From assembly GCA_016214555.1 (NCBI GenBank), contig JACROF010000008.1:1-47140 (forward strand): a stretch of DNA of 47,140 bases. Direction: 5' to 3'. Both the position numbers and the translations under genes were made by a program. Of the stretch, positions 14,415 through 28,713 are shown one piece after another. The stretch is from Candidatus Levyibacteriota bacterium (GTDB lineage: Bacteria > Patescibacteriota > Microgenomatia > Levybacterales > UBA12049). Within the stretch, counting starts at the first letter, position 1; every line of letters begins with the position of its first letter. The notes beneath the pieces are model-generated. The model had not been told where the DNA came from, ran no database searches, and was given only the letters and a program-made list of their open reading frames with translations.

Positions 14415-14425
14415 AGTTTTATGTT

Positions 14426-14477
14426 CCGTTTCGGCCTTTCAGGCCTCATCAGGCCCCGATGGACATCGGGACGACGG
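14426..14477 (-). ncRNA. Type III hammerhead ribozyme motif HH1
   Basis: Minus strand reads CCGUC|GUCCCGAU-GUCC-AUCGGGGC CUGAUGA GGCC-UGAAA-GGCC GAA ACGG. Full core. Helix I is 8 bp, helix II 4 bp, helix III 4 bp. Its 3' end lies 11 nt before the ATG at 14414. Confidence 0.8.
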
Positions 14478-14554
14478 GATCAGGGATGGCATAAGCCATT
14501 TCGCTTGTCAGCGTCTCCCGCACCCACTTTTTCCACCGCAATTGGTGGTGAAGT

Positions 14555-14581
14555 GGGCGCGGTCAACTAGTGACCGCGCCC
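14555..14581 (-). other. 11-bp GC hairpin after the stop of 14610-15233
   Basis: GGGCGCGGTCA-ACTAG-TGACCGCGCCC. A second hairpin follows at 14523-14557. No U-tract. Confidence 0.7.
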
Positions 14582-14609
14582 TCATGATACTATTCAGTTG
14601 TTCCCGACT

Positions 14610-15233
14610 CTATTGAAGTCGGAAGGTCGCCTCGCAAACCTGCGGAAGCGTTGCAGGGCCAGTGACCTCGGACGCATTGAAGCAGTCCCAGACCTGGCCA
14701 TTCACGCCTGCTGGAATGGAGAGACTGACGGGCGAGCCCGTCTTGAGATGGACCCCCTTGGGGTTCATCACGCCATTTGCCTCCTTGAGGCCTTCGAATC
14801 GGCCTTCGCAGGGTCCAGCCGTGCACCAAGCTTGCGCCTGATCTGCGGTGAGGATCTGCGGAGCGCCCGAGCCGTTACTCGTGATCGTGGTCGTCGTATT
14901 GATCGTCGACTGACTCTGAATCACGGTGCTTCCGGCATTGCTGTCGGTAGTGCCACCAGTGGTAGTCTGTCCGACGGTCGCACCAGACGTGTTGGAAGCA
15001 GCCTGCTGGCTGCTTCCGCCCGTGGGTTCATTGCTGTCACCAGTGACCGGCTCTTCGCCGGTCTTGGCCGCTATCAACTTATCGAGAGCGTTTCCAACGC
15101 CTCCCCAGTTGGTGATGCGGGCGTTACTGTCCATGCTGAACAGCCCACCATCGAAAGTCTGCACCAGGCCTGTGAAGACCATGAGTGCAACGACGATGAC
15201 TGTGACCCATCCGAGACCTTTCTTGATGTCCAC
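14610..15233 (-). CDS. Secreted or membrane-anchored protein with a Cys-containing C-terminal domain (paralog of 17692-18546)
   Basis: GTG start with AAAGGAAA upstream. Signal-anchor GWVTVIVVALMVFTGLV, an S/T/G-rich linker, and a C-terminal WCT..C.GR.E.L...NP.GV.LK.G...P.G...WD...VTG...CE domain. Confidence 0.7.
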   Translation of the reverse strand: MDIKKGLGWVTVIVVALMVFTGLVQTFDGGLFSMDSNARITNWGGVGNALDKLIAAKTGEEPVTGDSNEPTGGSSQQAASNTSGATVGQTTTGGTTDSNAGSTVIQSQSTINTTTTITSNGSGAPQILTADQAQAWCTAGPCEGRFEGLKEANGVMNPKGVHLKTGSPVSLSIPAGVNGQVWDCFNASEVTGPATLPQVCEATFRLQ

Positions 15234-15294
15234 GAGAGATTTCCTTTCGTTGTTTTCTAAGCACGCTAGCTGCGCACTTTAAGAAAGAACAAGC

Positions 15295-16989
15295 CTATGA
15301 GTCAAGTGGTGGGGTGTTGTTGTCCCATGCCTTTTTGAGGCGCCACTTGATTCGTTCGCCAAGCGTGGCGGATTTGACCGGAGGCGAAGAGGGCTTCTGG
15401 GCCTCCTTCACAGTATCCGTCTCTCTCGAGCGAGGTCGTGCGAGTGTTTCCATCACTCTTTCGTCGGATTCTTCATCCAGAACGAAGGGGCGTGAAGGAA
15501 TCTGCTCGAGCATCCTTCCCACAGTTCTGTCGTCCAGAGTAGGGGGTGATGGAGCAGGCGTTTCTTGAGGCTTTGGGCCTCTTGAGACATAGACGGTGAT
15601 GTCTTCTCTCAGAAGACCACGGACGTAGGATATGACCTCGCCTCGTGGTATCAATTGAGAGAATTGACGTTGAACCGTTGCATTCCAGCCGTGACGCTCG
15701 AGATACTCAAGCGCTTTCAGCTCATCCATGCCGACGATATTGTCCAGATTGCCAGTTGGCTCCGGATCGTCAACGAAGATACGAGCTGGCCTGTCACCGA
15801 CCATATTTGGCCTTGTGAGCCAGTCAGGTAGACGCGTGGCGGGAGTCTCCTCAGAATTTCCCGATCCGTCTGGATCGGAATCATCGAGAAGATTATCCCA
15901 CGGGTTGGTGGCGGGTGCAGTTTGAACACCGACTATCAGGACAGCCTGTCCTGGTTCTTCGCCGAGTTCAGCGCTCAGGACTTTGCCGTCATTTTCTGTT
16001 GAGCTTTCGCTTCCTAGAGAGGTGACGGTCCATCTTCGATCTTCGAGATACTGCGTTGCGCCCGCTTCCGTCATGGAAACGACCGTTTTTAGATCTCTTG
16101 GATCAAATTGTGGCTCCGGTTTTGCAACCGTTACCACGTGTGCCTCGCCTGTGTCGGGCGGCTGGAAGGGAAAGATTGGATCTCCTCCTCCCAGTGGAAC
16201 GATGACTGGCTCCGGCGTTGCCGGAGCTGTAGCAGGTGTTGCCATGTCGCTTTCATCTCCTTGGGGTGCTTGTGGCACCCAGCGTTCAATGAATGTGTCA
16301 TAGTGACGATCGAACTCGTGGTTGACGAGCTCTTCCTCAGAGAGAAAAAGCCAGTTTGAACACGAGGGAAAGTCACATCGCCAGGTCTGGACAGTGGGGT
16401 GGTCCGCGATCACGTGAGCATTACGGCCCTTGTAATCTTTGAACATTCTCCAACATCCGTGAATGCGACACCGCAAGCGGTGCGATCCGACCTGGTCCTT
16501 GGTGATGCCGTGGTTGTTTTTGAGGTGCGTATCCTCGAAGTCCGGGTGGAATTCGATTTTGCATCCTTCAACACGACATTTCATCTTGGACGGTGGAGCA
16601 GGAGGTGGCGGATCAGGAGCTCTCTTGTCCGGCGGATTGCTCTCACCGGGGAAAAGATCGCTCAGATCAACCATGTGTTGAGCAGCAAGCTCGCGAAGTT
16701 TTTCCAGCGACAGTGTTGCCGACGGTTTGACTTCGTTACGAGTTCCTTGCCTGATTCGCTCACGAATGAGCGAACGCTTGTCCTGCTTTGCCACAGGGGT
16801 ATCTTCCAACGCTTTCGCGTTGGGGTCAATGTCTGTGACGTCCACATTGAGTGAGGCTGCGGTGACGATGAGCGTTTCAAGACTCATCGCTTCGAGGATT
16901 GCCTCATTTGCCTCGGGGTCTTTCGCGCAAATTCGCGCGATAACCTCGCTTTTGGTTTTCTGATACTGTTCATCGTGACGAGCAGCCAT
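15295..16989 (-). CDS. Orphan 564-aa protein with three tandem C2H2-type zinc-finger motifs and two PASTA-like C-terminal repeats
   Basis: The ORF track extends to 17100. I prefer the ATG at 16989 (MAARHDE) with AAGGAGG 6 nt upstream. Three C-x4-C-x11-13-H-x4-H units lie within about 100 aa. Confidence 0.7.
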   Translation of the reverse strand: MAARHDEQYQKTKSEVIARICAKDPEANEAILEAMSLETLIVTAASLNVDVTDIDPNAKALEDTPVAKQDKRSLIRERIRQGTRNEVKPSATLSLEKLRELAAQHMVDLSDLFPGESNPPDKRAPDPPPPAPPSKMKCRVEGCKIEFHPDFEDTHLKNNHGITKDQVGSHRLRCRIHGCWRMFKDYKGRNAHVIADHPTVQTWRCDFPSCSNWLFLSEEELVNHEFDRHYDTFIERWVPQAPQGDESDMATPATAPATPEPVIVPLGGGDPIFPFQPPDTGEAHVVTVAKPEPQFDPRDLKTVVSMTEAGATQYLEDRRWTVTSLGSESSTENDGKVLSAELGEEPGQAVLIVGVQTAPATNPWDNLLDDSDPDGSGNSEETPATRLPDWLTRPNMVGDRPARIFVDDPEPTGNLDNIVGMDELKALEYLERHGWNATVQRQFSQLIPRGEVISYVRGLLREDITVYVSRGPKPQETPAPSPPTLDDRTVGRMLEQIPSRPFVLDEESDERVMETLARPRSRETDTVKEAQKPSSPPVKSATLGERIKWRLKKAWDNNTPPLDS

Positions 16990-17353
16990 GCTGCCTCCTT
17001 TTTGATAAGTGCGAACGCACGAAAATTCGTGCGTAAAACTATAGCAGGAAGAAAGATGACATAACTCTGGATGATACTGCGACATGCAGTGATATTCCAA
17101 GAGCCGAAAACAATCCAGCTTTGCTGGACTCTATTCGACTCTTGGGTTGAATAGTATATGAGGTAGTAAAGATTTCTCTTTACACCCTGATCTGTTAATG
17201 TGCGTTATTTGTTTTGTTTTATCCACCTGATCTTACTTCAAAGCTTTTCAGCCCGCCTAGCCGGCGAGGCTGGAACTATTCGTTCACGCTTTGAAGAGCG
17301 ATTATCGGCGGATTGTATACTTTTGAAAAATTAACTTAATAATTTTTGTATAC

Positions 17354-17481
17354 AAAAAAAAACCGGCCTTACGGTCGGGGAGAATAGCTGGCAGCTGTAT
17401 ATTGGTCTTGTCTATGGGTGCAGTCCAACTATTTTCTCCAACCCTCCGATGTAATTTCGGAGTTGTGTTCATACACAAGTA
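17354..17481 (-). ncRNA. Promoter-proximal structured leader or small RNA ending in a U9 tract
   Basis: Begins about 7 nt after the -10 of promoter 17488-17516. Hairpins UUGUGU/ACACAA and CUCCGA/UCGGAG, a 9-bp helix AAUAGUUGG/CCAGCUAUU, then CCGACC-GUAA-GGCCGG (one A.C mismatch) and UUUUUUUUU. Confidence 0.4.
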
Positions 17482-17487
17482 GGGAGA

Positions 17488-17516
17488 AGTATAGCAAATA
17501 TTATAGGATATGTCAA
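17488..17516 (-). promoter_or_regulatory. Sigma70-like promoter, conserved cassette copy a
   Basis: TTGACA-TATCCTATAATATTTGC-TATACT with a 17-nt spacer. Confidence 0.6.
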
Positions 17517-17567
17517 GCTGACTGAGGCTGTATCTAGCCTCGAAGTGTTATCACTCCTATAGGGTGT

Positions 17568-17632
17568 GTCATTTCGCCCGCCCTCGTAATAGCAAGGTCG
17601 AGGCTCATCAGGTCGCCTAAGGCGACGATGAC
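17568..17632 (-). ncRNA. Type III hammerhead ribozyme motif HH2
   Basis: GUCAUC|GUCGCC-UUA-GGCGAC CUGAUGA G-CCUCG-ACCUUGCUAUUA-CGAGG-GCGGG-C GAA AUGAC. Helix III GUCAU/AUGAC is compensatory relative to the other copies. Cleavage triplet is AUC. Confidence 0.75.
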
Positions 17633-17655
17633 CTGCAATAAGGTCTAGATTGAGT

Positions 17656-17682
17656 GTGAGGCCTGGCAGAGCCAGGCCTCAC
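17656..17682 (-). other. 12-bp GC hairpin after the stop of 17692-18546
   Basis: GTGAGGCCTGGC-AGA-GCCAGGCCTCAC. Lies 23 nt upstream (in the minus sense) of HH2. Confidence 0.75.
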
Positions 17683-17691
17683 ATATGGGGA

Positions 17692-18546
17692 TCACGACGA
17701 TCTCGTCGCGATCTTGCGGATACTTCCTTCGCAGGCGTTGGCGACCATGGTCGCGGTCTGACCGGTCACGGTGGCGGTTCCGTCCCAGATCTCAAACGTA
17801 TACCCGTCGGGCACGTTCATTTGGAAACAGGAGTCACCAGCCTTGAGCTTGACGCCGGCCGGATTGGGATTTCCATCCGACTCGACGAGCTGCTCGAGGC
17901 GACCGCTGCAGTCTGGCGTACACCACGAAGCGACAGTCGTCACGTTGAGGGTGTTGCCGCTGCCGGTATCCGTGGCTCCGTTCGTGCCGCCTTCGGTCGT
18001 ACCGGAGAGGGGTGCAGCCAGGAGCGTTCCGTCACCGCAGGTCGCGGGATCGGAGGTGAGCACGGGTCGGTAGTAGACGTCGAACTGCGGATCGCGGGCT
18101 CGCGTGTTATTGGGATAATCGGCCCACTTGCCGAATTCGACTTCCTTGGGGTAGAGAGCACATACGTCCCAGACGGCGTCGCCGGCGGGGAAGGATGGCT
18201 TGTACCTGAAGGTACCGCCGTCACCCATGACGGTCTGGCCGTTGCCATTTTGGACGGTAACGGGGAGGTCGCCCCCCTCGTCGATCGTGCAAACGAAGTC
18301 TGCCGGGCACGTGAGCTGTACGTCGTTTGGCGCGCTGCGCCAGGTCCACGTACAGGGTTCGGTACCGAGAAAGACCACGTTCTGGCCGATCGCGGCCTGA
18401 GCCCAGCTGTCAGCTGGACACGTCACCGGCGATGCCGGGGGCGTTGAGGTGTCCTGTGCTTGAGCCGAACTGAATCCGGCCATGCCGAGTGCGATCGCAA
18501 CGATTGCGATCAAGAAAACGAACCGTGGAATCTTCTTGTTTCCCAT
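17692..18546 (-). CDS. Secreted Cys-rich protein (paralog of 14610-15233 in the C-terminal domain)
   Basis: I prefer the ATG at 18546 with AAGGAGGG upstream. Signal peptide MGNKKIPRFVFLIAIVAIALGMAGFSSAQA. The C-terminal ~70 aa aligns with 14610-15233. Confidence 0.75.
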   Translation of the reverse strand: MGNKKIPRFVFLIAIVAIALGMAGFSSAQAQDTSTPPASPVTCPADSWAQAAIGQNVVFLGTEPCTWTWRSAPNDVQLTCPADFVCTIDEGGDLPVTVQNGNGQTVMGDGGTFRYKPSFPAGDAVWDVCALYPKEVEFGKWADYPNNTRARDPQFDVYYRPVLTSDPATCGDGTLLAAPLSGTTEGGTNGATDTGSGNTLNVTTVASWCTPDCSGRLEQLVESDGNPNPAGVKLKAGDSCFQMNVPDGYTFEIWDGTATVTGQTATMVANACEGSIRKIATRSS

Positions 18547-18697
18547 TGATGCCCTCCTTGGGCTTGTGTCCCTTGCGGGACTCGACGAAGAAAAACGAAA
18601 AGTTGATCGATGCGCACCTCCTTTGTGTGCTTGATATATCCGAAAGGAAATAACAAGTAGTACACTCAATGAATGCATCCGACCTCCACGAGTTGTG

Positions 18698-18780
18698 AAG
18701 ATACCGGAAAACGCGCACTGTAGAGGCATAGTATTCCTGCCCTAAACGCTATACATGCAGTACGCGATTTCCGGTATCTT
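18698..18780. repeat. Long inverted repeat (17/18-bp arms, 47-nt loop) in the leader/promoter region of 17692-18546
   Basis: AAGATACCGGAAAACGCG (18698-18715) versus CGCGATTTCCGGTATCTT (18763-18780). A possible TTAACA-18-TAAGAT promoter at 18776-18805 overlaps the right arm. Confidence 0.6.
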
Positions 18781-18947
18781 ATAAAGACCTTATTGCAGTT
18801 GTTAAGGTTCGATTTATCTGATAATTCTCACAAAATGAGAACAATAAGATATCCAGTCATAAAACTATGAGTGGGGAAAAGAGCAGAAAGAGGGGATTGC
18901 GAGGAGGTGCTTTCAGTGCGCTTTTCTCCAGCCATATTGTAAAAGGC

Positions 18948-19712
18948 TTAGCTTGTCTTTCGACGAAGGATAAGTCCGCCAATACTTGATGGGATAAGTG
19001 CAAAAAGAGCTAGCATCTCAGCTCCAGTTTTTGGAGTTGCTTTAGCATTAGGTGAAGGATAAACAACCTGTCCGCCCTTAGTCATGGTACTAGTCGTACC
19101 AAGGGTTGGTTTTTGAATACAAACCTGTGCATTGTCTTGATTTTGTACGTTATTAACAGCTACAAAAGACTGATTGGTTTCACAAAGGATTCCTTGATCA
19201 GCAGGAAGATCTGATGCCTGAGCAATTTTTGCGTTAAGAGTGAATGTCTTAGATTCATTTACTTTAAAGTCTCCAGCATTGAAGGTGAGCGTTTTAGTAC
19301 TATTGTCATACGAGCCACCTGAGATACCAGATACATAGGTAAGATGAGATGGGAGTACATCGGTGACACTTACATTTGATAGAGCCTGATCTGAAGTATT
19401 TGTTACTTTGAGCTGAAATGAAACGGTGTCATTTGGAGCGTATTTAGGATCATTGATTGTAAGGTTGTCAACGAATTGTCCTGATTGAGGATTTTTAACA
19501 GATTTATCAATAAGGATTTTTGTGGTAACACAGTTAGTTCCGCCACCATAGGTAGGCTCACAAGTAGTTGTGCCGTAGCCACCAGTGTTGTTATTGGTTG
19601 TTGAGAGAACTGCTTGAGTTGGAGTAGGAGTTACATTCCCTGATGCAAATGCAGGAACAGTAACGATACTTCCAAGAATAAGTGCAGATGTTATAGCGAT
19701 AGTTTTATTCAT
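18948..19712 (-). CDS. Cell-surface protein with DUF11-like repeat and a PxTG-type sorting signal
   Basis: Signal peptide MNKTIAITSALILGSIVTVPAFA. Motif NDTVSFQLKVTNTSDQALSNVSVTDVLP. C-terminal PKTG, hydrophobic stretch, then RRK. A+T-rich like the backbone. Confidence 0.75.
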   Translation of the reverse strand: MNKTIAITSALILGSIVTVPAFASGNVTPTPTQAVLSTTNNNTGGYGTTTCEPTYGGGTNCVTTKILIDKSVKNPQSGQFVDNLTINDPKYAPNDTVSFQLKVTNTSDQALSNVSVTDVLPSHLTYVSGISGGSYDNSTKTLTFNAGDFKVNESKTFTLNAKIAQASDLPADQGILCETNQSFVAVNNVQNQDNAQVCIQKPTLGTTSTMTKGGQVVYPSPNAKATPKTGAEMLALFALIPSSIGGLILRRKTS

Positions 19713-19753
19713 ATCTTTTAGAGCAAAAATTTTGCCTCAAAATTGATCTGTGA

Positions 19754-19782
19754 ACTATATCATATCTTATAGGATATGTCAA
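19754..19782 (-). promoter_or_regulatory. Sigma70-like promoter, conserved cassette copy b
   Basis: TTGACA-TATCCTATAAGATATGA-TATAGT with a 17-nt spacer. Confidence 0.6.
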
Positions 19783-19944
19783 GCATTTTAATACTTAGGC
19801 ATTTCGTGAACTTCCTCGAAGTGGCAGTGCGAGGAGCACAAAGGGCAAGGCAGCCACAAAACTTAATAGTTTTGTGCTTTTATAGTTCGTATTTTTCCGA
19901 GTTCTTTTTCTCATAGTTTTTTCTTATTGTCAAGTGTTTTAGTG

Positions 19945-19967
19945 TTTTAGGGGTGAAACCCCTAAAA
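19945..19967. repeat. REP-like hairpin TTTTAGGGG-TGAAA-CCCCTAAAA
   Basis: Same 17-nt core TAGGGGTGAAACCCCTA as the hairpins flanking the RAYT gene at 40.8-41.5 kb. Confidence 0.75.
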
Positions 19968-20013
19968 GTTTAATATAATTGCCGAATTCTGATGAGGAGA
20001 TTTCCTCAGCAAA

Positions 20014-20060
20014 ATATGGCAAGGCACTCAAGAGTGGGGAGAGAATGAACCTTGCCATAT
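20014..20060 (-). terminator. 11-bp inverted repeat at the downstream edge of the large GC-rich block (terminator-like)
   Basis: ATATGGCAAGG (20014-20024) and CCTTGCCATAT (20050-20060) with a 25-nt loop. No clean U-tract. Confidence 0.35.
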
Positions 20061-20094
20061 AATTGCAGCGCATGCTGCGAGATGGAAGAGGTAA

Positions 20095-23040: not shown

Positions 23041-23083
23041 TTTTGCCTCCAAGACTTCAAATCGAATGCTGTGTTAAAGTTCG

Positions 23084-23133
23084 CTGTTTCGGCCTTTCAG
23101 GCCTCATCAGTTCCGATATCAATCGGAAGACAG
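23084..23133 (-). ncRNA. Type III hammerhead ribozyme motif HH5
   Basis: CUGUC|UUCCGAU-UGAU-AUCGGAA CUGAUGA GGCC-UGAAA-GGCC GAA ACAG. Confidence 0.8.
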
Positions 23134-23157
23134 AAGGTGTTGTGGGAAGGTTGGTTG

Positions 23158-23181
23158 CCGGGGGCGCATCTGCGCCCCCGG
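23158..23181 (-). other. GC hairpin after the stop of 23188-23610
   Basis: CCGGGGGCGCA/TGCGCCCCCGG. Lies 24 nt upstream of HH5. Confidence 0.75.
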
Positions 23182-23187
23182 CTGAGA

Positions 23188-23610
23188 TCAATCATCTGTC
23201 TCGGATCGAATGTCGTCGTCCAAGTCCTCAAGAGAGATCCCTTCCTTCGCAAGCCCATGCAAGATCTCGCCACCGTTCCATTTTCTGGAACAGGGGAGCG
23301 ATGAGAGCCGCTCGTGAAGGTCCTCGAGCTGAGCCATTAGACCTCTCGAATGCGTCAGGTTGGCGCGAATTCGCCCCAGCCGCCGCGGATCGATGTCTTT
23401 GGCTAGGGAGCCATTCTGGAGATCCTCGATCGTCTCCCGGAGATCCTCGATCGCATCATCGACCTCCTCGTGGGAGATCTCTTGATCGTCGCGATCGCGA
23501 GCGAGAAGGTCAGCGACTGTGTCATGCGAATGGAAGATGTCCTCCCATCGCCTCAGCCCCTCAAGGGGCGCGACTTTTTCGAAATCGTCCGCTGTTGAAC
23601 CCGTAGACAT
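23188..23610 (-). CDS. Hypothetical acidic 140-aa protein
   Basis: ATG with GAAAGG upstream. The overlapping plus-strand ORF 23028-23606 is Arg-rich and looks like an antisense artefact. Confidence 0.55.
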   Translation of the reverse strand: MSTGSTADDFEKVAPLEGLRRWEDIFHSHDTVADLLARDRDDQEISHEEVDDAIEDLRETIEDLQNGSLAKDIDPRRLGRIRANLTHSRGLMAQLEDLHERLSSLPCSRKWNGGEILHGLAKEGISLEDLDDDIRSETDD

Positions 23611-23629
23611 ATGATTGCCTTTCGCGTTT

Positions 23630-23655
23630 TATATTCTGTCACGTGACAGAATATA
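23630..23655. promoter_or_regulatory. Perfect 26-bp palindrome (operator-like) 20 nt upstream of the 23610 start codon
   Basis: TATATTCTGTCAC|GTGACAGAATATA. Confidence 0.5.
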
Positions 23656-23788
23656 GCAATGGTACTCGCCAGTACCAGCATGAAAGACACTAGGGTATAG
23701 CGCCCTTTATGTTGGTACTAACGTAACCTATATTATACAACACCTTGTTAAAGCTCGTCCTCCTTCGCATAAAGCCTCGGAGGACAAG

Positions 23789-23850
23789 CTGTTTTCATCT
23801 TGCCCTGCAGAGCAGGGAAGAATCATCAGGTCGCCTATGGCGACTAACAG
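23789..23850 (-). ncRNA. Type III hammerhead ribozyme motif HH6 (variant)
   Basis: CUGUUA|GUCGCC-AUA-GGCGAC CUGAUGA UUCUUCCCUGC-UCU-GCAGGGCAAGAU GAA AACAG. The core is intact and the cleavage triplet is UUA. Helix II closes with U.U instead of the usual G-C. Confidence 0.6.
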
Positions 23851-23872
23851 ATACAGGGGGCAAGTAAGAGTT

Positions 23873-23898
23873 GGCGGGTGGGAATGACCCCACCCGCC
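23873..23898 (-). other. 10-bp GC hairpin after the stop of 23907-24566
   Basis: GGCGGGTGGG-AATGAC-CCCACCCGCC. Lies 22 nt upstream of HH6. Confidence 0.75.
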
Positions 23899-23906
23899 GG
23901 AGTAAC

Positions 23907-24566
23907 CTAGTCGACCGCCTCGGCCCACAATGTTACGGCACTCCGTTTCGTGATGGTTCCTGGAAAATCTGAGCCCCCTTCACGATCGAGGAGCGCGTGC
24001 TGGGGTACGGTGAAACACGAAGTGTCTCCCCGATAGATCCAGCCATTGGGCGTGCCGCGGTGACGAATCCACCCATCAGTGTTCCCGCCGACGATGGTCG
24101 ACAGGACGTTTGGGTTGATCTCGGCAAGAGCGGGTAGCGTGCCCATCTCTTGAGCCTCGCATCGGCCGGTGATTTCGCGGACCGCCTGGTCTTTGAAATT
24201 TTTGGCCTCGTCCTTGCCCAGCTCGATATAGAGCTTGGTCGCGAATCGGGTGAACTCGACCGTTTGTCGAGTTTGTGAGATGATTTTTGCTCCATGAGCG
24301 TAGCCGGTATAGAAGCCGGTGCCGGTCATGGTGATTCCGACGAGACCCGCAAGCCCTACCGCAGCAACCTTCTTGAGTATGCTGCCTCGTTGTCGGGCAT
24401 TCTGAGCAACCGACTCGCCCGTCTCCGGAAATTCCGGAGCGATGTCGTCCTCCTCAGCTGGAAGCTGGGGAAGAGCGGGTTGACCGCCGGCGAAAAAGCT
24501 GGCGACGATACCGAAAACGAGCAGAGCACTGATCGCGGAAAAAATCTTTCCAACAATGCGTAGCAT
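23907..24566 (-). CDS. Hypothetical membrane-anchored 219-aa protein
   Basis: Preferred start is MLRIVGKIFSAISALLVFGIVASFF at 24566, with AAAAGGAG upstream. The ORF track extends to 24701 through the repeat. Confidence 0.55.
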   Translation of the reverse strand: MLRIVGKIFSAISALLVFGIVASFFAGGQPALPQLPAEEDDIAPEFPETGESVAQNARQRGSILKKVAAVGLAGLVGITMTGTGFYTGYAHGAKIISQTRQTVEFTRFATKLYIELGKDEAKNFKDQAVREITGRCEAQEMGTLPALAEINPNVLSTIVGGNTDGWIRHRGTPNGWIYRGDTSCFTVPQHALLDREGGSDFPGTITKRSAVTLWAEAVD

Positions 24567-24622
24567 CGATCTCTCCTTTTGGGATAGAATTCGCGACGAT
24601 CTGTCGCGAAGCTTGCTTTTAG

Positions 24623-24690
24623 CCAGCTGCTGCACGGTGACTTTGGCACGGGCAGAAATAGCACCGTGTTCACGAACATGCAGAAGCTGG
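24623..24690 (-). repeat. 68-bp perfect repeat, copy A (candidate structured 5'-leader element)
   Basis: Identical to 26139-26206. The outer stem CCAGCU/AGCUGG is extended by different flanking pairs in the two copies. Confidence 0.8.
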
Positions 24691-24777
24691 CATAAAGCCA
24701 TAGATAGGTTTTTCTTAAAACCCCCTGTATGTAAAAGAACTCCCTCCTTTGCTCTTGCGAGCCTGGAGGACTATACG

Positions 24778-24843
24778 TCTGTTTCGCCCGCCCTCGCAAT
24801 AGCAAGGTCGAGGCTCATCAGTCCCGCTAAGCGGGAGACAGAT
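24778..24843 (-). ncRNA. Type III hammerhead ribozyme motif HH7
   Basis: AUCUGUC|UCCCGC-UUA-GCGGGA CUGAUGA G-CCUCG-ACCUUGCUAUUG-CGAGG-GCGGG-C GAA ACAGA. Confidence 0.78.
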
Positions 24844-24869
24844 GGGGTGGGGGCTTTCGCCCCCACCCC
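24844..24869 (-). other. GNRA-capped 11-bp GC hairpin abutting HH7
   Basis: GGGGUGGGGGC-GAAA-GCCCCCACCCC. Starts 7 nt after the stop of 24877-25173. Confidence 0.85.
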
Positions 24870-24876
24870 GGGATAG

Positions 24877-25173
24877 CTACAAGCGACGGATTACTTTTCC
24901 GTCTTTGATCCAATGTCCATCAGCGATGCTGTGGACTTCGGGATTGTCGAGTCGAGGCTGCTCGATTCGACCCTGGGCTCGTAGTTCGCGAACCAGCTCA
25001 GCGGCTTCGACGGGAAAGTCCCGCCAATAGCTTCGCTGGTACATCTTGACGAGCTCGGCCCAGTCCTCTTCGGTGCGGGCCGTCGTGCCCGCTACGATCT
25101 TCTCGACGTCCTCCCGGGCAACACGCCCTCTGAGGATGTCTTGAACGCAGAAAGAAAGACTGCGACCAATCAT
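24877..25173 (-). CDS. Hypothetical 98-aa protein
   Basis: ATG with AAGGAGG 6 nt upstream. Lies between HH8 and HH7. Confidence 0.6.
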   Translation of the reverse strand: MIGRSLSFCVQDILRGRVAREDVEKIVAGTTARTEEDWAELVKMYQRSYWRDFPVEAAELVRELRAQGRIEQPRLDNPEVHSIADGHWIKDGKVIRRL

Positions 25174-25196
25174 GCTAACCTCCTTTTAAAGAACTT

Positions 25197-25267
25197 TCTG
25201 TTTCGCTCTCATCCGCCTGTTGGCGGAAATGAGCTCATCAGGTCCGATGTTCATCGGGACGACAGAT
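25197..25267 (-). ncRNA. Type III hammerhead ribozyme motif HH8
   Basis: AUCUGUC|GUCCCGAU-GAAC-AUCGGAC CUGAUGA GCUCAUUUCCGCC-AACA-GGCGGAUGAGAGC GAA ACAGA. Its 3' end lies 23 nt before the ATG at 25173. Confidence 0.8.
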
Positions 25268-25293
25268 GGGGTGGGGGCTTTCGCCCCCACCCC
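25268..25293 (-). other. GNRA-capped 11-bp GC hairpin abutting HH8
   Basis: Identical to 21311-21336 and 24844-24869. Preceded by an 18-bp palindrome TTGTAGCAGCTGCTACAA that spans the stop of 25308-26084. Confidence 0.85.
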
Positions 25294-25307
25294 GGTTGTA
25301 GCAGCTG

Positions 25308-26084
25308 CTACAAGCTGCCGGTCTGATTGACGACTGGCACTTCGCAGACCACGCGATTGCGTGGATCGGCAAAGGTGCCAGAAATGTTCGGCGACACAGA
25401 AGTCGGACATTTAGAGTCCATCTCCTTGAATTCGTCGAATTTTGAAAAGCTCATGATGAGCCCTTTCGGGCCAACTCTCATGATGCGCGCCGTTCCTCGA
25501 TCAGGTCGCTCGTAGCGACCGAGGGCCATGATGCCATCGGACCAGAAAGGGTTGTCCTGGTCGTAGGCATAGATTTCACCCTGCGCCCAATAGCTCACTG
25601 TGTCCGGGATGTCGAAGTCAGCGCCTTGCCCGACGTACATGACGGCGGCCGTTGCGCCCCACGCTCCATATGTGAGAACGACAAAGTCGTCCTCGGTGCA
25701 TTCAGTTCGGCAGAGCTTGACCGCATCGTCGACAGTCATTGACCGTCCGATGTACGGCTCGTACCGATCCGGAGCGGACCAGTGTAGGTGGTCTGCCTTG
25801 TAGTGGAGAAACGCCAGGACGCCGAGGACGATTGCGATTGCAACTGCCCACGGAGCGATTCGGCGAAGAGCGCTTTGCTCATCGTCATCGTAGTCGCAGC
25901 AGTCCTCGTCATTGAGGATGGCCTTGACTTCTTGAACCTCGGTCAGAACCTGAGCGAGTTTGTCGTCGCTTGTGGCGGCGACTTGCTCATCAACGGCGTC
26001 CGAGTCATCCTGGTCTGTCTCTGATCGACCAGCGACCAAGAGGTCGTCGTCGTTTTTGACGTTTTCGTTGCTTGTGTCAGACAC
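25308..26084 (-). CDS. Hypothetical single-pass membrane protein with an acidic N-terminal region
   Basis: 258 aa. GTG start with GAGGAG 6 nt upstream. One TM (APWAVAIAIVLGVLAFL). Confidence 0.6.
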   Translation of the reverse strand: MSDTSNENVKNDDDLLVAGRSETDQDDSDAVDEQVAATSDDKLAQVLTEVQEVKAILNDEDCCDYDDDEQSALRRIAPWAVAIAIVLGVLAFLHYKADHLHWSAPDRYEPYIGRSMTVDDAVKLCRTECTEDDFVVLTYGAWGATAAVMYVGQGADFDIPDTVSYWAQGEIYAYDQDNPFWSDGIMALGRYERPDRGTARIMRVGPKGLIMSFSKFDEFKEMDSKCPTSVSPNISGTFADPRNRVVCEVPVVNQTGSL

Positions 26085-26138
26085 TGTAGCTCCTCACGTT
26101 AGTGCAGTACGTATCGCGCACCACGCGCGATAGGGGTA

Positions 26139-26206
26139 CCAGCTGCTGCACGGTGACTTTGGCACGGGCAGAAATAGCACCGTGTTCACGAACATGCAGA
26201 AGCTGG
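26139..26206 (-). repeat. 68-bp perfect repeat, copy B (in the 5' leader of 25308-26084)
   Basis: Identical to 24623-24690. Here the outer stem is extended to GGTACCAGCT/AGCTGGTACC. Confidence 0.8.
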
Positions 26207-26258
26207 TACCAAATGTAGCTAATTTAGTAATGTGCGATTCTGCCTTTTTTGTAGACAC

Positions 26259-26288
26259 AAAAAAAGACAGAGGGTTGTCCTTCTGTCT
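26259..26288 (-). terminator. Intrinsic-terminator-like hairpin about 25 nt downstream of the predicted start of promoter 26318-26346
   Basis: AGACAG-N12-CUGUCU followed by UUUUUUU on the minus strand. Confidence 0.5.
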
Positions 26289-26317
26289 GGTTGTTCTTCC
26301 GGGCAGAAAGATGCCAT

Positions 26318-26346
26318 ATAGTAGCATAGCCTATAAGATTTGTCAA
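26318..26346 (-). promoter_or_regulatory. Sigma70-like promoter, conserved cassette copy c
   Basis: TTGACA-AATCTTATAGGCTATGC-TACTAT with a 17-nt spacer. Confidence 0.6.
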
Positions 26347-26440
26347 GTAGGTATTCGAGATCGCAAAATAAAGAGCCTATATTGATTTATGTATTAGCTT
26401 CAATGGTAGAGCAGGATAAAAAGAGATTGATTAATAGTGT

Positions 26441-26797
26441 TCAATTAGTGATATTTAGACTGTATAAGTAACATAAAATATGTTGCAGTAGAGTAAATAA
26501 AAATAAATACAGTGAAGCTGAGAAGGTGAGGGATAAAAAAGGCAGGGAGTAGGAAAACCCCCTGCCGCCGAAACCGACGAAATGTGATAAAAAGCTGCCA
26601 TGTAATGAAATATCCAGGAAAAAGACTTCCTCTATGAGGTCAAAAAGAGAGCTATTGCCGCCAGGATGAAAAAAGAGCAAGAAAAGGGTTGAAACAATTA
26701 TCCCTACACATATAAAGAGTCCTATCTTTTCCCAAAGGCGAAGCGATTCCCAGATAGTGCGGGCCTCCTCAGGATCGTTAGCCATGGGAGGGATCAC
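26441..26797 (-). CDS. Hypothetical small membrane protein
   Basis: 118-aa A+T-rich ORF with about three hydrophobic spans. Start uncertain: GTG at 26797 or ATG at 26785. Confidence 0.45.
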   Translation of the reverse strand: MIPPMANDPEEARTIWESLRLWEKIGLFICVGIIVSTLFLLFFHPGGNSSLFDLIEEVFFLDISLHGSFLSHFVGFGGRGFSYSLPFLSLTFSASLYLFLFTLLQHILCYLYSLNITN

Positions 26798-26851
26798 AGA
26801 TCCTCTTTTGTGAGGCGTTTGCTATGAAAAATTTCCTGTCCACGATGCCTC

Positions 26852-26959
26852 CTACGATGACCATGCCCAATAGGCAAGCGTTGCCAAAGCCAAAAGAAAT
26901 CCGAGAGCGGAAACAACGTAATTGAAGCTCAGAAAAGATTTCAGGCGTGATATATCCAT
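26852..26959 (-). CDS. Hypothetical 35-aa membrane peptide
   Basis: Preferred start is MDISRLKSFLSFNYVVSALGFLLALATLAYWAWSS, with a purine-rich stretch upstream. The ORF track extends to 27055. Confidence 0.35.
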   Translation of the reverse strand: MDISRLKSFLSFNYVVSALGFLLALATLAYWAWSS

Positions 26960-27149
26960 TAAACCTTTTTCCTTTCCTATGAACGTCGGTTTGTTAAGGT
27001 CCAGCCAACAAATGGCGTTACAACCATGATAACAAATCTTATAGTACAGAGTCAAGGAAAAGGGAATGTTACGAGAGGGGATAAGAGGAAAAAAGAAAGA
27101 TACGTGGCCTCTTTTGGAGGAGTCTTTTGCAGGCTGTTATAAAGATGGT

Positions 27150-27228
27150 GGGTCGGGCCTTAAGGCCCGACCCATTGGCTAGGCAGTTTTCTGCCTAGCA
27201 GACGGTGCGCCTGGGGAACATCCCCAGG
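27150..27228 (-). other. Three tandem GC hairpins after the stop of 27248-27400
   Basis: GGGTCGGGCC/GGCCCGACCC (27150-27173), CTAGGCAG/CTGCCTAG (27179-27198) and CCTGGGGA/TCCCCAGG (27210-27228). No U-tracts and no ribozyme core. Confidence 0.7.
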
Positions 27229-27247
27229 CCCCGGTCGCGAGCGCAAT

Positions 27248-27400
27248 CTAGCTGGCGGTACCGCCGGTCTGGTCACCCGGACCGCGGGACTCACCCTGCT
27301 GCTGCTCGGCCGCGCCGTCGGCGCCGTCGCCGTCGGGGCTGGTGCCGGTCGTCGGATTCGCATTGAGATATCGCGTGTTGGAGTTGATCGTTTGCCTCAT
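27248..27400 (-). CDS. Hypothetical 50-aa Gly/Asp/Thr-rich peptide
   Basis: Preferred start is MRQTINSN at 27400, with AAAGGAG 8 nt upstream. Confidence 0.4.
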   Translation of the reverse strand: MRQTINSNTRYLNANPTTGTSPDGDGADGAAEQQQGESRGPGDQTGGTAS

Positions 27401-27660
27401 GTATGAGGCTCCTTTCTGTGCGAGATACCGCAGCTGACTCCCTTTCGGTGTCAAGCCACCGCGGCTCGAATTCAGTTAAAGAGCGACTTGCTTCAACGGT
27501 TAGGCGTCACCGCCGGCCGGTCGGTGACACAAACAGACCCTGTTAGAAACTGGGAACTGTGAACCGAACACTAGCGACTTAGACGACTTAACGAGCGAGA
27601 CGAGCCCTGACTTTATATAATTCAAAATCAGGGGGTGAAACCGAGGGCGTTTGAGGTGTC

Positions 27661-27945
27661 TCAGGCCTCTAAAAAAGGTCTTTTGTTTTCCTCCCGCGAG
27701 CGATCGTGCCCATGAAATAAAAATGGGCGCGCGCCGGGCAGTGAGGTTCCCGATCCTTTTTCCGACTTCTCGGTTGGCGCTTTACTCATAGCGCCATCAG
27801 TGAGTATGAAGCAATTCTTGCCTCCTTTCTCAGGATAGTACTGCGAGTAGTTTTTTAGCGCGTCACCTCTTTGGGTGCGCGCTACACCCCGCTCAGAAGC
27901 GGGGTCGAGTACGCACCAAAAAGGTGAGTTATCTTTATAAACCAC
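27661..27945 (-). CDS. Hypothetical ORF (coding status uncertain)
   Basis: GTG start with no SD. The region also folds into several GC hairpins. Confidence 0.3.
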   Translation of the reverse strand: MVYKDNSPFWCVLDPASERGVARTQRGDALKNYSQYYPEKGGKNCFILTDGAMSKAPTEKSEKGSGTSLPGARPFLFHGHDRSREENKRPFLEA

Positions 27946-28015
27946 GTATCTTGTTAAAGTTCAAAAAAAACTTATTTGAAACGTCTTATAGATGTTAAAA
28001 ATAAGCAAGGAGCGG

Positions 28016-28044
28016 ATAATATCATATCCTATAGGGATTGTCAA
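28016..28044 (-). promoter_or_regulatory. Sigma70-like promoter, conserved cassette copy d
   Basis: TTGACA-ATCCCTATAGGATATGA-TATTAT with a 17-nt spacer. Confidence 0.6.
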
Positions 28045-28080
28045 TAGGGGAAAATATGTCGACTGAGAAGTTTTTACATA

Positions 28081-28114
28081 AAAGAAAAAGGGGAGGATCA
28101 GATCGATCCTCCCC
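28081..28114 (-). terminator. Intrinsic terminator for minus-strand transcripts leaving the 28.1-28.7 kb block
   Basis: GGGGAGGATC-N5-GATCCTCCCC followed by UUUUUCUUU on the minus strand. Confidence 0.7.
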
Positions 28115-28388
28115 ACGTGTGCGGCACAGTGCCGTGCTTATCGACGGATGTCCCCAGGGGGACAGCAGGAGAGGTAGGTGCTAGTTAAGCACATCCAAAT
28201 TGATGGTTCCCTCCATGAATCAGTCGAGAAGTTATGATTGCGCGTTGACGCACCATCTCCAGTGGAGATAGGGCAGGCAGTGCCTGACATGGTTGCCCAG
28301 GTTGGGCGAGCTTAGGTCCGATATCCCTCGGACACAGACTGTCGTGTCAGACAAAGCTGGTTTGCAACGCTAGAGCTTCTGGTGAAGC

Positions 28389-28499
28389 ATGACCGTCCGC
28401 CGATTGGACGCGCGTCCACCTTGGAATGGCGATCGGACCGCATGGGTAAATTCCCCCTCACGCGAAGACGACACACCACCAACGAGTACGAGCCTATGA
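28389..28499 (+). CDS. Candidate 36-aa micro-ORF a (speculative)
   Basis: MTVRRLDARPPWNGDRTAWVNSPSREDDTPPTSTSL. Its first 27 nt are paralogous, in frame, to the start of micro-ORF b. Weak SD. Confidence 0.25.
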   Translation: MTVRRLDARPPWNGDRTAWVNSPSREDDTPPTSTSL

Positions 28500-28509
28500 G
28501 AGATCAAGC

Positions 28510-28626
28510 ATGACCATCGTCCGCAACGATGCGCGTAAAAGTCTTGAGCAAAAAGCTCATGACCACTCCTTTCTCTACGTAGACAAACTACCGTTGTGTC
28601 CTACCTTGCTGGTGCAAGGCGAGTAA
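28510..28626 (+). CDS. Candidate 38-aa micro-ORF b (speculative)
   Basis: MTIVRNDARKSLEQKAHDHSFLYVDKLPLCPTLLVQGE. The stop abuts the plus-strand terminator. An antisense 18-aa ORF (28504-28560) with a strong AAAGGAG SD competes with this call. Confidence 0.25.
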   Translation: MTIVRNDARKSLEQKAHDHSFLYVDKLPLCPTLLVQGE

Positions 28627-28685
28627 GACACCGGCTCTTGCTACTGTTTGGTTTAACAATAAACAACAGCCGGTGTCTTTTTTTT
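28626..28685 (+). terminator. Strong intrinsic terminator for plus-strand transcripts
   Basis: AGACACCGGCT...AGCCGGTGTCT (11 bp) followed by T8. Confidence 0.7.
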
Positions 28686-28713
28686 GAAGCTCTACAAATG
28701 TGATAAAAAGTGC

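Follow-up and report, generated by a model that had tools for sequence, protein, structure and literature searches.

In bacteria, hammerhead ribozymes have been found in clusters that flank single genes, and it has been proposed that they cut long transcripts into gene-length mRNAs (PMC3088659). Their biological role is still described as "largely elusive" (PMC6765202). Here we describe an array of candidate hammerheads in a stretch of 47,140 nucleotides from a Candidatus Levyibacteriota bacterium (contig JACROF010000008.1 of assembly GCA_016214555.1, called the window below), which belongs to the candidate phyla radiation (CPR). The window is one contig (C5) of a 1.05-Mb genome in 17 contigs, which has 38.9% GC and is 96% complete. 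Between 14.4 and 28.8 kb it holds an island in which GC-rich open reading frames (ORFs) alternate with AT-rich promoter patches. A literature search gave no paper that relevantly combines hammerheads with the CPR or Patescibacteria.

As in the arrays of Perreault et al. 2011 (PMC3088659), hammerheads on the same strand stand close together between small genes of varying identity, and the role proposed for them is the same. We consider it rather probable that the region is a lineage-conserved, variable expression island of RNA-structured, ribozyme-trimmed modules in CPR bacteria of the Levybacteria type. Its hammerheads, its boxA-like words and its excess of RNA structure, none of which figured in an earlier note made from the letters of the window, suggest that the transcripts maintain much of their GC-richness as a property of their own, over and above any foreign origin.

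Hammerhead ribozymes between the GC-rich genes

DNA repeats between the genes were sought because the translated ORFs had odd peptide strings in common. The repeats are seven intact type III hammerheads and one decayed copy, each located after a GC-rich gene. On the minus strand they carry CUGAUGA, a hairpin and GAAAC, which is the hammerhead core; the catalytic core of CUGAUGA and GAAA is present at seven sites, and the eighth copy, which reads CCGAUGA, was counted as decayed. Stems I and II are closed by loops and stem III is open, which is the type III layout, and in several copies minimum free energy (MFE) folding alone yields the three-way junction. The A15.1-U16.1 pair is present together with an NUH triplet (GUC at five sites, AUC at 17631 and UUA at 23849), and the ribozymes are located 35-178 nt 3' of a GC-rich ORF.

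Two copies were matched end to end by the Rfam model Hammerhead_3 (RF00008, clan CL00010), with 34.9 and 34.4 bits (E 2.4e-4 and 3.3e-4). The Rfam scores are low because long inserts in stem II and a short stem III are penalised. A seed covariance model was built from loop-trimmed copies and only used to find and realign real sequences; with this model the hammerheads score 29-52 bits, with E values down to 1e-14. In 43 copies from the window and its relatives, 97% of the cells pair, versus 67% in shuffles and 31-51% with slid partners, and 12 of the 13 pairs change on both sides, across all three helices. The stems have plainly different sequences in different copies, with pairing retained. 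A permissive Rfam scan of the island gave no twister, pistol, hatchet or RAGATH family, and at gathering thresholds only rRNA and tRNA were found. The sole 16S rRNA match of the genome (contig C4, 177-968) covers model positions 1-1533 with 792 bases at a contig end; this could mean a truncated gene or an unusual structure behind the coordinates.

Three of the ribozymes are preceded, without spacing, by a GC hairpin of 11 bp with a GNRA loop and no U-tract (GGGGUGGGGGC-GAAA-GCCCCCACCCC). The terminal hammerhead is followed by an A-rich spacer of 11 nt and then by the start of the glycosyltransferase (GT) gene GT2. As seen in the sequence, this gap leaves no room for a promoter or a Shine-Dalgarno (SD) sequence, and the spacer has identical length and is likewise SD-less in a related NCBI contig (L002, from GCA_964555695.1). 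In several genera a ribozyme is found 4-81 nt before the start of GT2 or GT1.

With our own model, hammerheads were found in 24 of 151 genomes of the family and in 41 of 301 genomes of the class, usually with 1-4 copies each; the genome of the window has the most copies (8) among those scanned. A genome of the same genus (G138) has no hammerheads, but the corresponding locus is not assembled or not present there, so that it cannot serve as an empty-site control. At 30 independent hammerhead loci the 500 nt upstream have a mean GC of 0.509 and the 500 nt downstream 0.402, and upstream GC exceeds downstream GC at 28 of them (Wilcoxon p = 7e-6).

Two side observations concern further copies. Contig C1 of the same genome holds another small cluster of genes rich in GC at third codon positions (GC3) at 120.9-129.5 kb (L005), with a type III hammerhead at 122106-122154 on the plus strand, 113 nt after a GC-rich ORF of 355 amino acids (aa). 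In the related genome G041 (contig C20; L041, 8023-8071 and 9390-9438), two identical hammerheads bound a unit of 1367 nt directly upstream of GT1, which looks like a cassette bounded by direct repeats or a recent tandem duplication.

Composition, synteny and RNA folding of the island

The earlier note had described, by eye, a sharp alternation in composition, and the computed values bear it out. The GC-rich blocks range from 0.54 to 0.60 (14416-17100, 0.546; 17560-18690, 0.595; 20060-26210, 0.540; 27140-27950, 0.565; 28090-28690, 0.536) and the AT-rich patches from 0.29 to 0.41 (17100-17560, 0.408; 18700-20060, 0.394; 26210-27140, 0.403; 27950-28090, 0.291), with flanks of 0.395 and 0.427. 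The boundaries are sharp, about 40-100 nt wide; at 17100 the change is less abrupt, since ORF o601 has a GC of only about 0.40-0.47 at its 5' end. Windows of 400 nt have a mean GC of 0.388 +/- 0.045 genome-wide. A GC of at least 0.50 is reached in 24 of 35 such windows of the island versus 32 of 2578 elsewhere, and a GC of at least 0.60 in none outside the island. The shift extends to the codon level, which the note had proposed to check together with sliding-window GC. ORFs of the GC-rich blocks have a GC3 of 0.49-0.70, a GC1 of 0.55-0.70 and a GC2 of 0.36-0.56, and backbone genes have a GC3 of 0.25-0.38, so that amino acids are affected and not codons alone. A GC3 of at least 0.52 was found in 26 of 988 ORF-level genes of the genome, and the island is the largest cluster of such genes. 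The region thus has the atypical composition and codon usage of a genomic island.

Other observations of the note stood up as well. It had seen near-consensus promoters in the AT-rich patches, and each of the six best sigma-70-like sites falls into an AT-rich stretch and is read on the minus strand. Its native-looking surface-protein gene is a DUF11 gene with a GC3 of 0.25, and the hairpin at 19931-19981 that it had called a repetitive extragenic palindrome (REP) recurs elsewhere in the genome. All homology matches and the sole estimate of dN/dS (non-synonymous to synonymous substitution) fall on minus-strand frames, in agreement with its view that all credible ORFs are on that strand. It had also taken the GC-rich ORFs to be mostly orphans: o258 matches only itself, o601 has one known relative (on a contig called L004 below), o345 has three relatives, and PHROG matches are absent.

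The island is located in a slot between a divergent gene for a type IV secretion system (T4SS) coupling protein (T4CP) and a GT operon, and the same island type was found in this slot in at least five independent related assemblies. The related loci are L002, two Logan contigs from other runs (L003 and L004) and several GTDB genomes. Three junctions recur: an AT-rich DUF11 gene followed by GC-rich o345 and a hammerhead, a hammerhead followed by an AT-rich promoter patch and GC-rich ORFs, and a hammerhead followed by the start of GT2. L002 shares with the window the DUF11 gene, an o345 homolog, two small ORFs, GT2, GT1 and a gene of about 700 aa, and it is a mosaic of blocks with 0.60-0.68 GC on a backbone of 0.44. 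One of its three hammerheads comes after the o345 homolog and another ends 11 nt before GT2. In L002 and in the genomes G051, G111 and G041, the hammerhead-bearing GC-rich stretch always lies between the T4CP gene and the GT/o1096 genes, with a size of 3-14 kb and differing gene content.

Across Microgenomates the T4CP gene is conserved on the chromosome, and its nearest relative in named genomes belongs to a Candidatus Levyibacteriota metagenome-assembled genome (MAG; 76% identity). Upstream of T4CP genes with at least 60% identity, a GC mosaic was found at 8 of 10 loci, with hammerheads at five of them. At loci with T4CP of about 50% identity (Gottesman-, Shapiro- and Woesebacteria) mosaics are rare, and hammerheads are absent from that place. 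Genomic islands are also judged by sporadic presence and by a drift of composition towards the host; the slot, conserved in 8 of 10 close relatives, does not agree with the former, nor the GC3 of o345 (below) with the latter. Many third-party records of Microgenomates-type CPR MAGs (loci L065-L142) are titled "uncultured Gammaproteobacteria", apparently a placeholder label.

The o345 protein has a 56% identical homolog on L002 and on L003. Compared with its L002 ortholog, o345 has an aa identity of 0.61, a proportion of synonymous differences (pS) of 0.62 and a dN/dS of 0.26, at a GC3 of 0.74 and 0.87 in the two copies. Its neighbours have diverged to a similar degree (aa identity 0.67 for GT2, 0.64 for the DUF11 gene, 0.56 for GT1 and 0.51 for o702) at a GC3 of 0.25-0.48. 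The synonymous sites of o345 are near saturation at this high GC3, and the GC-rich state is therefore being maintained.

The contig L004 (2817 nt, SRR19053153) spans exactly one unit, with a hammerhead, a promoter patch, homologs of o601 and o207, and a second hammerhead. Its non-coding frame is 78-91% identical to that of the window and its ORFs have 39-40% protein identity (pS 0.67-0.70); judged by this pair of sequences, very different cargo alleles sit in a conserved frame. Both ends of L004 are inside a hammerhead and have 11 nt in common (CTGATGAGCCT), which could mean that the unit is circular or that assembly broke off at a repeat.

Because the two units without long ORFs, TU1 and TU2, gave z = -8.7 and -7.8, the coding parts were tested for folding. 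We used dinucleotide-preserving shuffles in 400-nt windows, and a synonymous-codon permutation that keeps protein, codon usage and GC3 fixed. With the shuffles, the GC-rich ORFs of the window have z values from -1.9 to -7.2, and 18 windows from the islands of L002, G051, G111 and L004 have values from -2.2 to -7.6 (mean -3.98), versus means of -0.53 for an ordinary 56% GC contig and -0.48 for CPR backbone (Mann-Whitney p ~3e-5 each). With the synonymous permutation, the mean of the island genes is -4.97 and 16 of 17 are below -2; the control means are -0.46 (56% GC genome) and -1.24. The most structured coding RNA of the island is that of a cupredoxin gene, with z = -8.95 versus -0.37 for its homolog in a native 56% GC genome. 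The native homolog has no folding excess, which places the origin of the structure, or selection for it, in the island.

The predicted folds are made up of numerous local hairpins (median pair span 21-30 nt, with 63-69% of the bases paired) and are not rod-like. Sense z values are more negative than antisense ones in 17 of 19 segments (p = 7e-5). U makes up 19% of the sense strands versus 29% in backbone genes, and 18% versus 39% at third positions. Since the RNAs are folded beyond what protein, codon usage and GC3 require, we conclude from these folding models that the synonymous sites of island genes serve to build G-C-rich RNA structure, in the form of predicted hairpins. Such structure would explain why the GC-richness persists, why it ends at transcript boundaries and why the non-coding units share it.

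Parts of the modules and proposed mechanism

The coordinates of the features are collected in Table 1.

Table 1. Features of the island and its borders, in window coordinates; "to" marks the reading direction on the minus strand
Feature	Position	Strand	Remarks
T4SS coupling-protein-like ATPase (T4CP), backbone	28840-31608	+	divergent from island; conserved right-hand anchor of slot
Promoter P1, TTGACA-17-TATCAT	28749-28777	-	11/12 matches; AT-rich gap common to divergent T4CP gene
TU1, GC-rich, no long ORF	28085-28745	-	intrinsic terminator 28114 to 28090; MFE z = -8.7 (dinucleotide shuffles)
Covarying hairpin motif of TU1, two copies	28385-28415, 28506-28536	-	sole ORF of TU1 has 18 codons, with SD
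Promoter P2, TTGACA-17-TATTAT, TG-extended	28016-28044	-	palindromic spacer ATCCCTATAGGAT
TU2, GC-rich, short ORFs only	27140-28012	-	boxA-like word 27959 to 27952; terminator 27174 to 27149; z = -7.8
ORFs of TU2	27661-27945; start near 27400	-	94 aa; about 50 aa, with SD
AT-rich native-type unit	26441-27055	-	promoter P3 27055 to 27026; two small membrane-protein ORFs
ORFs of native-type unit	26441-26797 (118-aa ORF)	-	about 35 aa; 118 aa
Promoter P4, TTGACA-17-TACTAT, TG	26318-26346	-	head of long ribozyme-punctuated array
Leader hairpin, copy 1, about 76 nt	26130-26218	-	5' untranslated region (UTR) of o258
o258, GC-rich orphan ORF	25308-26084	-	acidic N-terminus, one transmembrane (TM) segment; synonymous-permutation z = -2.3
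GC hairpin (25293 to 25268) and abutting type III hammerhead (25265 to 25197)	25197-25293	-	36.8 bits, E 1.8e-9
o98, GC-rich orphan ORF	24877-25173	-	between two hammerheads, unit 424 nt; z = -5.0
GC hairpin (24869 to 24844) and type III hammerhead (24841 to 24778)	24778-24869	-	RF00008 34.9 bits; own model 41.6
Leader hairpin, copy 2	24613-24702	-	5' UTR of o264
o264, GC-rich ORF	23907-24565	-	probable start ATG 24565 after SD; N-terminal TM anchor; z = -3.0
Type III hammerhead, cleavage triplet UUA	23789-23849	-	38.7 bits; then hairpin and boxA-like word 23753 to 23746
o140b, GC-rich acidic orphan ORF	23188-23610	-	
Type III hammerhead	23133 to 23083	-	Rfam 34.4 bits; own model 45.2, E 2e-12; boxA-like word directly after, 23079 to 23072
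Cupredoxin (plastocyanin-like)	22630-23052	-	signal peptide or anchor; GC3 0.70; PF00127 E 3.7e-16; z = -8.95
Decayed hammerhead, core CCGAUGA	22612 to 22555	-	without 5' strand of stem III; boxA-like word 22550 to 22543
o109, GC-rich orphan ORF	22203-22532	-	z = -2.9; terminator-like hairpin near 22135-22170 (by eye)
o138, GC-rich orphan ORF	21355-21771	-	boxA-like word 21780 to 21773 just upstream; z = -4.7
GC hairpin (21336 to 21311) and type III hammerhead (21308 to 21244)	21244-21336	-	36.9 bits
Sub-unit with ORFs o85, o112, o93	20095-21230	-	o93 with two TM segments; boxA-like word 21107 to 21100
Extended -10 promoter of sub-unit, with palindrome	about 21180-21220	-	read by eye
AT-rich native unit	18698-19981	-	REP-like hairpin 19981 to 19931; promoter P5 19782 to 19754; hairpin with 23-bp arms 18780 to 18698
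DUF11 surface-protein gene	18948-19712	-	GC3 0.25
o345, 284 aa from ATG 18546	17692-18546	-	secreted, two Cys-rich domains, GC3 0.74; ortholog at equivalent position in L002
Type III hammerhead closing DUF11-o345 unit	17568-17631	-	41.4 bits; just upstream of P6
Promoter P6, TTGACA-17-TATACT, TG	17488-17516	-	patch identity 84% in L004, 69% in L002
o601, called product P0001, 564 aa	15295-16989	-	C2H2-like Cys/His motifs, PASTA-like segment
o207, GC-rich membrane-anchored protein	14610-15233	-	C-terminal domain in common with o345
Terminal type III hammerhead	14477 to 14425	-	44.5 bits, E 3.6e-12; GC-rich DNA ends at last ribozyme base
GT2 glycosyltransferase, backbone	13629-14414	-	first gene of GT2-GT1-o702-o1096 operon
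Predicted cleavage sites (+/-1)	25261, 24837, 23845, 23129, 21304, 17627, 14473	-	

The six best promoters (P1 to P6) have 10-11 of 12 matches to the sigma-70 consensus and spacers of 17-18 nt. Because four of them (P2, P4, P5 and P6) have a palindromic, ATCCTATAGGAT-like spacer in common, which is also kept in L002, L004 and G051, the sequences suggest that one dimeric repressor controls the whole island.

The two copies of the leader hairpin are identical over 68 nt (z = -5.7) and have an invariant base of 10 bp (GGUACCAGCU/AGCUGGUACC), internal loops of GAA and AAAG, and two covarying pairs. Further copies were found in L002 (3033-3125), G051 (C1:153924-154012) and G111 (C2:23477-23566 and 24240-24317). 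The hairpin is confined to this genus and this island and belongs to no Rfam family; as a long and nearly perfect helix it could be a target of RNase III or of a protein dedicated to binding it. TU1 has its own repeated motif, a GCGC-hairpin-GUCAUGCUU. TU1 and TU2 have no match in Rfam or in the related islands, and they could be large non-coding RNAs or messages for small peptides.

The boxA-like word CUUUAACA occurs in 6 copies in 7 kb of the island, on the sense strand only, with 0.24 copies expected (P = 2e-7). Its form in the related islands is (G/U)UCUUUAACAAGG, which was found 11 times on the sense strand and never on the antisense strand and often directly follows a hammerhead or promoter. 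It matches the CUUUAACAA core of the E. coli rrn boxA-spacer UGCUCUUUAACAA (PMC2724277). According to work cited in PMC2724277, the E. coli rrn boxA-spacer UGCUCUUUAACAAUUUA together with seven upstream residues suffices against Rho-dependent termination. Genes for NusB and Rho were found in the genome, and the boxA reading of the island word is a well-founded lead at the sequence level. Elsewhere in the genome, clusters of GC3-rich genes are located on contig C4 at 25.7-27.0 kb and 43.5-45.3 kb, and a boxA-like word stands 265 nt upstream of C4:25680.

The CUUUAAC words prompted us to consider an integron cassette array, which was rejected: 34 scanned ORFs of the window include no intI or other recombinase gene, and the inter-ORF repeats are hammerheads. 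Judged by eye and with no dedicated attC search, CUUUAAC is not followed by the GTTRRRY partner of an attC site.

The small REP-like hairpin, TTTTAGGGGTG-AAA-CCCCTAAAA, was found at 19931-19981, 40759-40856 and 41523-41544, and also on contig C12 at 207-209 kb and on C1 at 141.7 kb. It stands on both sides of an IS200-like Y1 transposase gene (40854-41501), which resembles the relationship between REPs and REP-associated tyrosine transposases (REP/RAYT). The label "REP hairpin" is reasonable because the hairpin recurs in this way, including the transposase flanks.

The cargo has few relatives. A word-based search of 5.8 billion proteins returned only o601 itself, and its sole known homolog is the 39% identical one on L004, which likewise precedes an o207-like gene. 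In the product of o601, three C-x4-C...H-x4-H motifs look like C2H2 zinc fingers; it also contains a tract rich in proline and a segment similar to PASTA (PF03793, E 2.9e-7). Among 1.84 billion representative proteins, o258 matches itself alone. Three relatives of o345 were found, none of the family in 185,579 species genomes. Ten island ORFs gave no PHROG match, the island has no relatives among 50,697 phage records and IMG/VR, and sequence searches of the PDB with the cargo gave no match. An AlphaFold2 model of the o345 family has a pLDDT of 44, with 72-82 only in a C-terminal beta domain, and Foldseek found nothing better than E 0.22 for it. Pfam matches in the cargo are limited to the cupredoxin, DUF11 and the weak PASTA. 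Outside the island, a protein of 1777 aa is encoded at 41707-47040 on the minus strand; it has seven LamG/concanavalin-like repeats (PF13385, E 7e-166) and matches to lectin-type and sialidase-type domains, and is probably, from its domain matches, a giant surface adhesin.

From these parts we propose the following scheme, a further development of what Perreault et al. 2011 proposed for clustered prophage hammerheads (PMC3088659). A module would consist of an AT-rich, near-consensus sigma-70 promoter, in several cases with a palindromic, operator-like spacer; a leader, often with a boxA-like word or the conserved long hairpin; one or more GC-rich, U-poor ORFs with a strong SD, whose small products are secreted, membrane-anchored or orphan proteins; a GC hairpin that lacks a U-tract; and a type III hammerhead, or in three units an ordinary terminator. 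Transcription would start at the AT-rich promoters and polymerase would read through several modules, probably protected from Rho by Nus factors that load at the boxA words. Each hammerhead would cut the nascent RNA just 3' of the hairpin, leaving the upstream message with a hairpin-protected 3' end with a 2',3'-cyclic phosphate and the downstream message with a 5'-OH and a compact ribozyme body, so that the fates of neighbouring cistrons are uncoupled. Once the cut severs the earlier boxA word from the polymerase, a word after the ribozyme could re-install antitermination. The last ribozyme would pass read-through to the GT2-GT1 operon as a clean, leader-short mRNA. The structure would probably serve to stabilise the RNA, to evade RNases and Rho and to leave the folding of the ribozymes undisturbed, and the cargo would be exchanged or replaced over time inside the conserved non-coding frame.

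Several points weigh against this scheme. The Rfam scores of the hammerheads (34.9 bits at best) are below the RF00008 gathering cut-off of 48.5 bits, which is the curated threshold of one model and no biochemical criterion, and covariation was counted on an alignment fitted to our own model, which favours it. TU1, TU2 and the o109 unit of the island and some related loci are GC-rich without a hammerhead, and the ribozyme is therefore not obligatory. The identity of the boxA-like words rests on likeness to the E. coli consensus, and the rRNA leader of the genome itself has only loose boxA variants. The folding excess was computed from MFE predictions and is partly strand-symmetric, with an antisense mean z of -3.35, so that a DNA-level cause or local repeats may lie behind it; under synonymous permutation the excess is missing from o140b and present in a few backbone genes. 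That o345 has diverged along with its neighbours was seen in one gene pair only, and the searches with Pfam, PHROGs, PDB and Foldseek assign the cargo no function beyond cupredoxin, DUF11 and weak PASTA matches.

Alternative readings and comparison with known systems

The earlier note had offered two explanations, cargo imported and placed under host-type promoters, or an assembly chimera. Part of the first holds: the composition is foreign, the promoters are of host type, and the closest relative of the cupredoxin outside the window (55% aa identity) is on a contig of uniformly 56% GC with free-living-type, non-CPR genes and no hammerheads. This relative suggests that some of the cargo probably came originally from GC-richer organisms; the other cargo genes are orphans or CPR-restricted, and only the cupredoxin has such a relative. 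What falls away is a one-off recent acquisition.

It is unlikely that we are dealing with an ordinary island, imported fairly recently from higher-GC donors (possibly hosts), set behind host promoters by chance and not yet ameliorated, in which ribozymes and structure are baggage or incidental. The extreme shift in GC and codons, GC1 and GC2 included, would be expected from such an event, as would the cupredoxin relative, the content that varies between related genomes and the largely orphan cargo, and horizontal gene transfer and islands are reported to be common in Patescibacteria (PMC12455944). However, slot and frame are conserved across the clade, and o345 has diverged like its AT-rich neighbours, to near-saturated synonymous sites, at a GC3 that is still 0.74 and 0.87. 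The cupredoxin homolog in its native genome lacks the folding excess of the island copy, the protein libraries of 5.8e9 and 1.84e9 entries gave no donor for the other genes, and the hammerheads belong to a family that is spread across this CPR class. Integrase, flanking direct repeats and an adjacent tRNA gene are all absent: the sole tRNA of the window is at 36157, about 7.5 kb away, and its only mobility gene is the IS200-like transposase gene, 12 kb from the island.

We likewise doubt that the hammerhead-to-hammerhead units are mobile cassettes that recombine at ribozyme or UTR sequences or, in a stronger version, move through circular RNA in the manner of retrozymes. Halves and stems of the ribozymes recur in shuffled combinations from copy to copy, one copy is decayed, divergent cargo alleles sit in a conserved frame, and both the single-unit contig L004, with its overlapping ends, and the unit between identical hammerheads in G041 could be such cassettes. 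Consecutive ribozymes would release RNAs of 0.42-1.0 kb with ligatable ends. Yet neither a reverse transcriptase (RVT_1) nor an RtcB ligase was found in the 96% complete genome, in searches whose positive controls worked, and the units fold into local hairpins with unpaired ends rather than into rods. The overlap of L004 is equally explained by an assembly break at a repeat, the frame elements are found only in this island and are not scattered over the genome, and Perreault et al. found no spliced or circular products in comparable bacterial arrays (PMC3088659). Mobility of cassettes at the DNA level, through shared ribozyme sequences, is plausible, and the version with RNA circles or retrotransposition is weakened.

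A bolder reading, which we regard as rather improbable, takes the GC-rich modules for "armoured" messages, in which the RNA itself is selected to be long-lived or even exported to a partner cell and hammerheads are a standard 3'-end device of the CPR. The synonymous G-C hairpins, the depletion of U, the 3' ends with hairpin and cyclic phosphate and the ribozyme-capped 5'-OH ends would then protect the messages from RNases and Rho, in the service of the surface and secreted proteins of a genome-reduced episymbiont; for export, one could point to the T4SS coupling-protein gene next to the island. If this were true, persistent high GC in an AT-rich genome would be a signature of selection at the RNA level and not of foreign origin.

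There is little to be said for a remnant of a prophage or conjugative element. Bacterial hammerhead clusters were first described from prophage regions, where they typically surround small genes of variable identity (PMC3088659); next to the island is a gene for a T4SS coupling protein, and an IS200-like transposase gene is 12 kb off. However, the island ORFs and the phage libraries have nothing in common, as described above, the window has no integrase, capsid, terminase or relaxase gene, and the coupling protein is encoded by a conserved chromosomal gene in core-like flanks with conserved synteny. That a GC-rich organism was joined to a CPR backbone in assembly or binning is barely credible: the jumps in composition are sharp and MAG assemblies can be chimeric, but the 14 kb contain at least nine alternations, every one of which coincides with a promoter, a terminator or a ribozyme as functional boundary, the GC-rich blocks are connected among themselves by repeats, the hammerhead-GT2 junction is conserved almost to the nucleotide, and the synteny check that the note had called for found the same junctions in independent assemblies of other samples (L002, L003, L004, G051, G111, G041, L066 and L067).

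An island of ribozyme-trimmed modules in a conserved slot, the reading that we prefer, can be compared with several known systems. The candidate ribozymes, identified by sequence, agree with RF00008 type III hammerheads in their CUGAUGA/GAAA cores, open stem III, NUH triplets (GUC, AUC, UUA) and three-helix covariation; unlike these, they have a short stem III (3-5 bp) and often a long stem II (up to 41 nt). Like the boxA of rrn operons and phage lambda, the island word has the CUUUAACAA core and is located strictly on the sense strand and early in transcripts, where it is a putative binding site of NusB/NusE. Unlike the rrn boxA, it is found in the mRNA leaders of accessory genes and reappears after ribozymes, in a genome whose own rRNA leader has only loose variants.

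Genomic islands are reportedly recognised by their atypical composition, which is said to fade in the amelioration model of Lawrence and Ochman. With islands defined in this way our locus shares atypical GC, GC3 and amino acids, orphan or accessory cargo, and content that varies between relatives. It differs in its conserved position, its lack of mobility genes and of an adjacent tRNA gene, its structured RNA, and the lack of amelioration over saturating divergence. The persistence of high GC over such divergence, where it coincides with signs of selection on RNA structure, questions the inference from atypical GC to recent horizontal transfer. If this arrangement is general in the CPR, it would be a separate mode of expression for the fast-evolving surface and secreted proteins of uncultured organisms, and composition-based binning and island callers would mishandle such regions.

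Selection for local mRNA secondary structure in bacterial coding regions was reportedly found by Katz & Burge in 2003, and genome-scale ordered RNA structure (GORS) in some RNA viruses is said to have been described by Simmonds et al. in 2004. As in those cases, the native island sequence folds better than its own synonymous permutations. With a mean z of about -5 per 300-600 nt, the effect far exceeds what is known of typical bacterial genes, and it differs from typical coding structure and from GORS in being confined to specific GC-rich accessory genes within one genome.

The locus is a concrete, conserved arrangement that gives bacterial hammerheads a testable job, with a ribozyme at the border between variable genes and a core operon, and it also offers 3' ends formed by a hairpin and then a ribozyme, and boxA-like words after the cuts. 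It differs in several respects from the arrays of Perreault et al. (PMC3088659). The island has no prophage or integrase neighbourhood, which is their typical context, not a strict criterion, and is located on the chromosome of a CPR bacterium (Levybacteria). Its slot is conserved in a clade, and the last ribozyme is fixed directly before a core GT operon. Finally, its genes are GC-rich in an AT-rich genome, and their hyper-structured RNAs are combined with boxA-like words and hairpin caps.

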